In this document: in pieces, positions 454 to 581 of the stretch
How the letters are laid out: every line of letters begins with the position of its first letter
Position numbering within the stretch: the stretch's first letter is position 1
Source: a virus
Lineage: Duplodnaviria; Heunggongvirae; Uroviricota; Caudoviricetes
DNA: 7,052 nucleotides
Reading direction: 5' to 3' (one strand)
Virus record (IMG/VR): IMGVR_UViG_2585427745_000012
Notes under the pieces: generated by a model
The model's input: the letters and a program-made list of their open reading frames with translations, nothing else
The model's database searches: none
What the model was told of the DNA's origin: nothing
Position numbers and translations under genes: made by a program

Positions 454-495
454 GTTCACAGATAAAATACTCTCCAGGAAACCCGGGGCGGTTCA
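1..495 (+). mobile_element. IS3-family insertion sequence, right-hand portion (IS629/IS1203-like); left part lies beyond the window start
   Basis: Transposase ORF ends at 453 and the element ends ...CCCGGGGCGGTTCA at 495; its reverse complement TGAACCGCCCCGGGTTTCCTGGAGAG... matches the terminal inverted repeat I recall for IS629. The abrupt switch to unrelated phage sequence at 496 fits an IS boundary. The element name is from memory and needs an ISfinder check. Confidence 0.8.
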
Positions 496-581
496 GGACT
501 TCCTTCACTGCCTCAGCAGTGACCAGGGATGTGATTTCTGACATGGGATTTTCTCGTTGAAAGGTGTTGTCAAGAAAGTGA

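Follow-up and report, generated by a model that had tools for sequence, protein, structure and literature searches.

The closest described counterparts of the insertion reported here are the IS629/IS1203 elements of the lambdoid and Stx prophages of E. coli O157/STEC, which are 1,310 bp long with TGAACCGCCCCGGG... repeats, duplicate 3 bp of their target, and carry orfA and orfB with a programmed frameshift and an AL1L pseudoknot. IS629 shows a preference for prophage DNA, with 62% of its copies in O157 lying in prophages, and its subtypes differ by 4–5% (PMC3271280). In Stx2a phages, a survey of the stretch from Q to S also notes IS3-family (IS1203/IS629) elements there (PMC10462455), and in the Stx2 prophage Sp5 of strain Sakai an IS stands upstream of the lysis region, with transfer of the phage retained (PMC2669165). 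E. coli 08-3918 has a further member of the same IS group in its Stx2a prophage (L023, NZ_CP034797.1 1413201-1424255), where it occupies positions 4186-5495 of the locus and has struck DUF826, a small gene which precedes the holin in related prophages; the nanS-p gene of that prophage is split by ISEc8. The locus described here resembles these cases in the terminal repeats, 3-bp duplication and prophage location of its IS, with the 1,310-bp length, frameshift and pseudoknot seen in identical copies of the element, and differs from the O157/STEC cases in its probable IS subtype and in a host prophage that lacks stx.

The stretch of DNA analysed (the window, 7,052 bp) is the entire draft contig JOSM01000033.1 of assembly GCA_000713695.1, probably from E. 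coli 2-222-05_S3_C3. Its minus-strand genes, from DUF968 to DUF1378, are the late-regulatory part of a lambdoid prophage (Table 1), and its left edge lies inside an IS because short-read assembly broke at a multicopy repeat; the features that run off this edge therefore reflect assembly breaks rather than biology. From comparison with sibling and uninterrupted loci, we consider it very likely that, in a single lineage of E. coli represented by the 2-222-05_S3 colony isolates, one 1,310-bp IS has entered codon 16/17 of DUF826, duplicating the 3 bp GGA and leaving an intact lysis cassette beyond. The insertion is in every respect of a known kind, with only its exact site new: DUF826 codon 16/17 is the site of an insertion in no complete E. 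coli genome.

Table 1. Features of the window and of contig L026 (JOSN01000190.1) from sibling isolate 2-222-05_S3_C2.
Feature	Sequence	Position	Strand	Evidence or remark
IS transposase orfB, 3' part (last 150 codons and stop)	Window	1..453	+	Pfam rve, rve_3, rve_2; NF033516
IS right terminal region with right inverted repeat, ending ...GGGGCGGTTCA at 495	Window	454..495	+	VR50 alignment
Chimeric read-through ORF, 69 aa (DUF826 residues 1-17 and 52 residues from the IS antisense strand)	Window	335..544	-	ORF list
Target-site duplication, right copy (GGA)	Window	496..498		L014 12365-12367; left copy L026 567-569 (TCC, other strand)
DUF826 gene, 5' remnant (49/246 nt; codons 1-16 and one base)	Window	496..544	-	100% identity to the start of intact 81-aa DUF826 genes
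DUF1378, 60 aa, small membrane protein, intact	Window	582..764	-	PF07125, 121.5 bits; same place in all relatives
NanS-p-type sialate O-acetylesterase, intact, 653 aa (ATG 2862) or 658 aa (ATG 2877)	Window	901..2862/2877	-	Pfam DUF1737, SASA and DUF6645
IraM-type anti-adapter gene	Window	3123-3458	+	NCBIfam NF007393, 162 bits; precomputed Pfam hits place it in the PmrD fold family
STnc100 sRNA, full-length Rfam match	Window	3484-3673	-	RF02076, 132 bits (gathering score 47)
DUF3927 mini-ORF	Window	3739-3870	-	
tRNA-Arg(TCT)	Window	4372-4446	-	
tRNA with CAT anticodon	Window	4547-4622	-	
Q-type antiterminator	Window	4766-5587	-	PF03589
RusA	Window	5584-5958	-	
DUF968	Window	5971-7017	-	
DUF826 stop	L026	766		
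Pinholin-type S (MYQMEK..., 71 aa)	L026	843-1058		PF04971, 112.8 bits
DUF1327 protein, 296 aa	L026	1063-1953		PF07041
Endolysin, 177 aa	L026	1990-2523		PF00959
Rz	L026	3020-3478		PF03245, 161 bits
Rz1 lipoprotein ORF, embedded	L026	3231-3416		Lipobox LVVSAC
Nu1 and large terminase	L026	Downstream		

The initial annotation had placed an IS629-like element downstream of the NanS-p esterase, and this is confirmed, with the IS ending at 495. Window positions 1-495 match, at 100% identity, the terminal 495 bp of IS3-family copies 1,310 bp in length, which are present in thousands of E. coli records, that of strain VR50 among them. The element is assigned to the IS3 family, IS629/IS1203 group. The C-terminal 150 residues of its OrfB match the integrase core model rve (68 bits), together with rve_3 and rve_2, and the NCBIfam model for IS3 family transposases (165 bits, cutoff 160), whilst the target-site duplication (GGA; left junction from a sibling isolate) falls within the 3–4 bp of the family. 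The right inverted repeat terminates in ...CCCGGGGCGGTTCA, the inverted complement of the left end TGAACCGCCCCGGG; in the VR50 copy IRL and IRR are identical over their first 14 bases and the ends read TG...CA, consistent with the imperfect terminal 5'-TG...CA-3' repeats of IS3 elements. The 1,310-bp VR50 copy is annotated with the programmed frameshift and AL1L pseudoknot, and shares only 96.1% identity over 1,310 bp with an O157-type copy annotated as "IS1203 family", and the IS of the window is therefore probably another IS629 subtype. RefSeq calls the 100%-identical copies of this IS just "IS3 family transposase", and a truncated relative that shares their 90% protein cluster was deposited under the name "IS629, transposase orfB". 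The element is multicopy in the strain, with a 106-aa antisense ORF within the IS found on 16 contigs, and its transposase lies on the plus strand of the window and the late genes on the minus strand, such that the IS opposes the late operon.

From base 496 onwards the window is 99.9-100% identical to IS-free prophages, with the BLAST match starting at 494 rather than 496 because the CA of the target happens to equal the terminal CA of the IS. The element had been suspected of truncating a late-operon ORF whose continuation was displaced, and a comparison of the frame at 496-544 with uninterrupted loci was proposed. This comparison identifies the frame as the start of the DUF826 gene, with 100% identity: translation from the ATG at 544-542 on the minus strand gives MSEITSLVTAEAVKEV, exactly as at the N-terminus of the 81-aa DUF826 protein of intact loci, and the frame is cut at 495/496. 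The full-length protein, whose gene DNA is 100% identical to window 496-544, matches PF05696 at 149 bits, compared with 21.2 bits over profile positions 1-18 for the fusion ORF of the window, which falls under the cutoff of 25 as expected of a remnant. The 69-aa chimera of DUF826 and IS antisense sequence is probably meaningless, with no gene for such a product on record anywhere.

The reciprocal junction was predicted by modelling an intact relative together with a full IS copy, in which the 3' part of the split DUF826 gene should be callable only as a 40-aa ORF with a GTG start (MDAILDELLG...DMMM). Three GenBank accessions carry this remnant ORF, each of them belonging to a colony isolate of E. 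coli 2-222-05_S3, and in sibling isolate 2-222-05_S3_C2 it is carried by contig L026. The junction in L026 reads ...CCCGGGGCGGTTCA/TCC/TGCGCTCTGAAGAAG (or, as also read, ...TTTAGTCTCCAGGATTCCCGGGGCGGTTCA/TCC/TGCGCTCTGAAGAAGTCC...), in agreement with the left junction predicted for a duplication of 3 bp. Positions 1-566 of this contig are 99.8% identical to the left end of the VR50 IS, with the left repeat read on the reverse strand at 553-566, and positions 567-6537 are 100% identical to the uninterrupted loci L014 and L019 over 5,971 bp. The displaced part of DUF826, its remaining 200 nt, is thus found beyond the left end of the IS, where the initial annotation had also advised looking for a 3–4 bp target-site duplication; this is the 3-bp GGA, with the corresponding bases of L014 present at both ends of the IS and no base lost. 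A 4-bp duplication (GGAC) was considered and rejected, as it predicts a 97-aa left-junction fusion ORF that is absent from the protein collection, and the junction shows 3 bp.

The 40-aa remnant has one further record, a Logan contig (L027) that starts with adapter sequence: its positions 1-19 are the Nextera adapter ATGTGTATAAGAGACAG, which produces a spurious, identical remnant call and illustrates how a truncated ORF called where a contig starts may be artefactual.

The remnant gene of isolate C2 (KEN91332.1) adjoins KEN91333.1 on L026, and the third remnant accession, KEN98937.1, is 398 numbers from KEN98539.1, the unique DUF968 protein of the window; this proximity of accessions suggests that an identical reciprocal junction exists in the genome from which the window comes. 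Given that both flanks match independent sequences exactly and that the reciprocal junction carries the 3-bp duplication, the junction is judged not to have arisen by chance. A draft short-read assembly with a contig ending within a repeat might invite the explanation that an IS read-pile was joined to prophage DNA in a chimeric contig. However, the reciprocal junction lies at the same nucleotide, with its 3-bp duplication, in an independently assembled sibling isolate, and the remnant gene is called in three GenBank assemblies of the same lineage, such that the probability of an assembly artefact is negligible.

The first 566 bp of the IS, including a complete orfA, are read in L026 and the last 495 bp in the window, with the middle 249 bp (IS positions 567-815) on neither contig, and we infer the continuity of one single IS across this interval from the two contigs. 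As the IS is multicopy in the strain and is spanned by neither contig, its two ends might derive from different copies, either in a composite transposon with extra DNA or after an inversion or other rearrangement that has carried the lysis cassette away from the late operon; IS-associated rearrangement is known at DUF826 in strain 08-3918, where an IS1203 abuts ant and both holin and endolysin are gone. An inversion or deletion between resident copies would, however, leave no matching duplication, and a composite transposon, whilst formally possible, has nothing in its support. A perfect 3-bp duplication at the outward-facing IRL and IRR ends, together with exactly complementary halves of DUF826, is the signature of one transposition event, which makes two separate copies very improbable and argues for a single insertion.

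This single insertion appears to be confined to one lineage. Searches for the exact right junction found no match in the GTDB species-representative genomes, IMG/VR or the JGI metagenomes, nor in any complete RefSeq E. coli genome, where the best matches cover the prophage side only, and the insertion is therefore present in no other sequenced lineage of those collections. Window positions 494-7052 share 99.9-100% identity with more than 20 uninterrupted loci, which argues that the insertion is strain-specific and recent.

In the uninterrupted relatives, the genes that follow nanS-p are not those of lysis. We compared 23 uninterrupted loci, comprising a complete genome, a Logan contig that stops 23 bp past the end of DUF826, ten loci retrieved via the Q protein, ten via the 653-aa NanS-p, and the VT2-Sakai phage record. 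Where the sequence reaches, the gene order is nanS-p, DUF1378, DUF826, a 71-aa holin of class II (P21 type), usually DUF1327, lysozyme, Rz and terminase (Nu1), with DUF826 standing between DUF1378 and the holin in every locus that extends so far; the same gene order is reported in the Q-to-S survey of Stx2a phages (PMC10462455). The absence of holin, endolysin and spanin genes from the roughly 400 bp after nanS-p, which the initial annotation had read as abnormal, is therefore the normal layout, and the lysis cassette only seems to be missing because the draft contig ends in a repeat.

The lysis genes themselves were read in L026 rather than in the window. There, the holin starts 276 nt past the left end of the IS, and the components of a P21-type cassette (pinholin, endolysin and Rz/Rz1) are all full length, with the cassette DNA 100% identical to that of uninterrupted relatives; the terminase at the end of the contig is partial, and its product is not in the protein collection. 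The suggestion that the insertion had disrupted the lysis cassette accordingly does not hold, with holin, DUF1327, endolysin, Rz and Rz1 intact in the sibling isolate, the very finding that its proponents had named as speaking against it. The alternative suggestion, that the cassette had been separated, holds in no more than a trivial way, in that the cassette is now 1,313 bp further from the upstream late genes.

Taken together, the two contigs show the IS inserted after nucleotide 49 of the 246-nt DUF826 gene with no deletion, making DUF826 the sole gene destroyed, with nanS-p and DUF1378 intact upstream. The lysis cassette and terminase genes are unchanged and 1,313 bp further from the late promoter. 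In lambdoid phages, Q-modified RNA polymerase passes both intrinsic and Rho-dependent terminators over a late operon of more than 20 kb. Late transcription driven by the Q protein of this prophage would likewise be terminator-resistant and should read through the IS, and lysis and phage release are probably little affected.

A simple insertion might nevertheless be strongly polar, with late transcription or translation stalling in the 1.3-kb IS, the holin, endolysin and spanin under-expressed, and lysis or release delayed or defective. The IS lies between the late promoter/Q region and the lysis genes in antisense orientation, placing 1.3 kb of untranslated DNA in the path of the polymerase, and no sigma-70-like promoter that could drive the lysis genes independently was found between the left end of the IS and the holin. 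The right inverted repeat of the element also adds, at window 486-474 on the strand of the late genes, a weak, terminator-like hairpin of 5 bp with a T-run. In contrast, a much stronger hairpin of 13 bp, GC-containing and followed by a T-rich tract, is present on the same strand at L026 776-805, after the end of DUF826 and just before the holin start, and its sequence is also found in intact relatives. We interpret it as a native terminator-like or regulatory structure before the lysis cassette, and one that the polymerase must pass in the ordinary course. Promoter and terminator scans covering the junctions and the IS detected none above chance, with terminator-like sites no commoner than in shuffled-sequence controls. 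In addition to the capacity of Q-modified polymerase to read through terminators, prophage Sp5 of O157 Sakai transfers despite the IS upstream of its lysis region (PMC2669165). Strong polarity is thus considered unlikely, and a simple insertion with little effect on lysis is preferred.

The interrupted gene was also considered as a lysis gene in its own right. DUF826 matches only function-unknown families (PF05696, phrog_311 and phrog_8301), with searches for an NCBIfam model or a PDB relative finding none, and its identification as a holin, endolysin or spanin was rejected. The 71-aa holin itself (PF04971) is encoded by another gene, which lies 77 nt past the DUF826 stop. The conserved seat of DUF826 just before the holin does leave room for a role in lysis, and it is conceivable, if quite improbable, that the protein is a lysis-timing or late-gene accessory factor, whose knockout by the IS, with or without polarity on S and R, would yield a prophage in which the Q-driven upstream genes (the tRNAs and nanS-p) are expressed and lysis is altered or blocked. 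If true, this would represent a "locked-in" prophage kept for its cargo. Whichever is the case, the three sibling isolates provide a natural DUF826 knockout that could be used to probe the role of this widely conserved neighbour of the holin.

The annotation of DUF826 and DUF1378 is inconsistent across phage records. The two are separate genes, 37 nt apart, in the window and in RefSeq, whereas phrog_8301 (139 positions) and orf43 of VT2-Sakai (139 aa; L028 3304-3723) combine them in one protein. The many "partial" DUF826 proteins in GenBank were considered as a sign that the gene is a hot spot for IS insertion; their N-terminal cuts fall at various residues and at contig ends, and as repeats shared among lambdoid prophages explain them equally well, the idea was rejected.

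Among the described systems, Sp5 resembles this prophage in carrying a late-operon IS that separates the Q/toxin/esterase part from the lysis cassette, with the lysis genes intact. Unlike Sp5, the prophage of the window has lost DUF826, and is known here from sequence alone. The Stx2a prophage of 08-3918 has its DUF826 gene struck by an element of the same IS group in the same orientation, with the 5' remnant of the gene likewise at the right inverted repeat, however this insertion lies 56 nt further into the gene, such that 105 nt remain. The left end of the 08-3918 IS abuts ant, and that prophage lacks the remainder of DUF826 as well as holin and endolysin, with none of these annotated anywhere between stx2B and terminase, which points to an IS-associated deletion. 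That prophage may be lysis-defective, judging from its gene content, and the loss of holin and endolysin beside the IS could bear on toxin release. This deletion shows that the concern over lysis raised for the window was reasonable in kind, although it does not apply here. The significance of the insertion itself is small, with IS629-type elements already known to pepper E. coli prophages and this one adding a further strain-specific copy.

Several features of the neighbouring genes were noted in passing. At window position 6731 a T is found, where a base-by-base comparison with eight relatives shows G in every one of them, and this T makes the DUF968 protein unique in a collection of 15 billion proteins; it may reflect either a genuine private SNP or a mistake in the assembly. 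The nanS-p gene has two in-frame ATGs (window 2860-2877, minus strand), with nearly all records giving the 653-aa form and the 658-aa call recorded once. The exact 653-aa product occurs in 52 blocks of the protein collection, and looking it up returned uninterrupted loci only, whilst the 658-aa form led to one Logan contig with DUF826 intact. Downstream of Q, the tRNA with a CAT anticodon is assigned to Met by ARAGORN, and the identical gene in relatives is annotated as tRNA-Ile by RefSeq.

No stx gene is present in the window. In its place, between the tRNAs and nanS-p and on the strand opposite to the late operon, lies the IraM-like gene, which looks like a moron at the toxin-gene position. 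The STnc100 match, flanked by this gene and the DUF3927 mini-ORF, falls within the segment where Stx phages carry stx.
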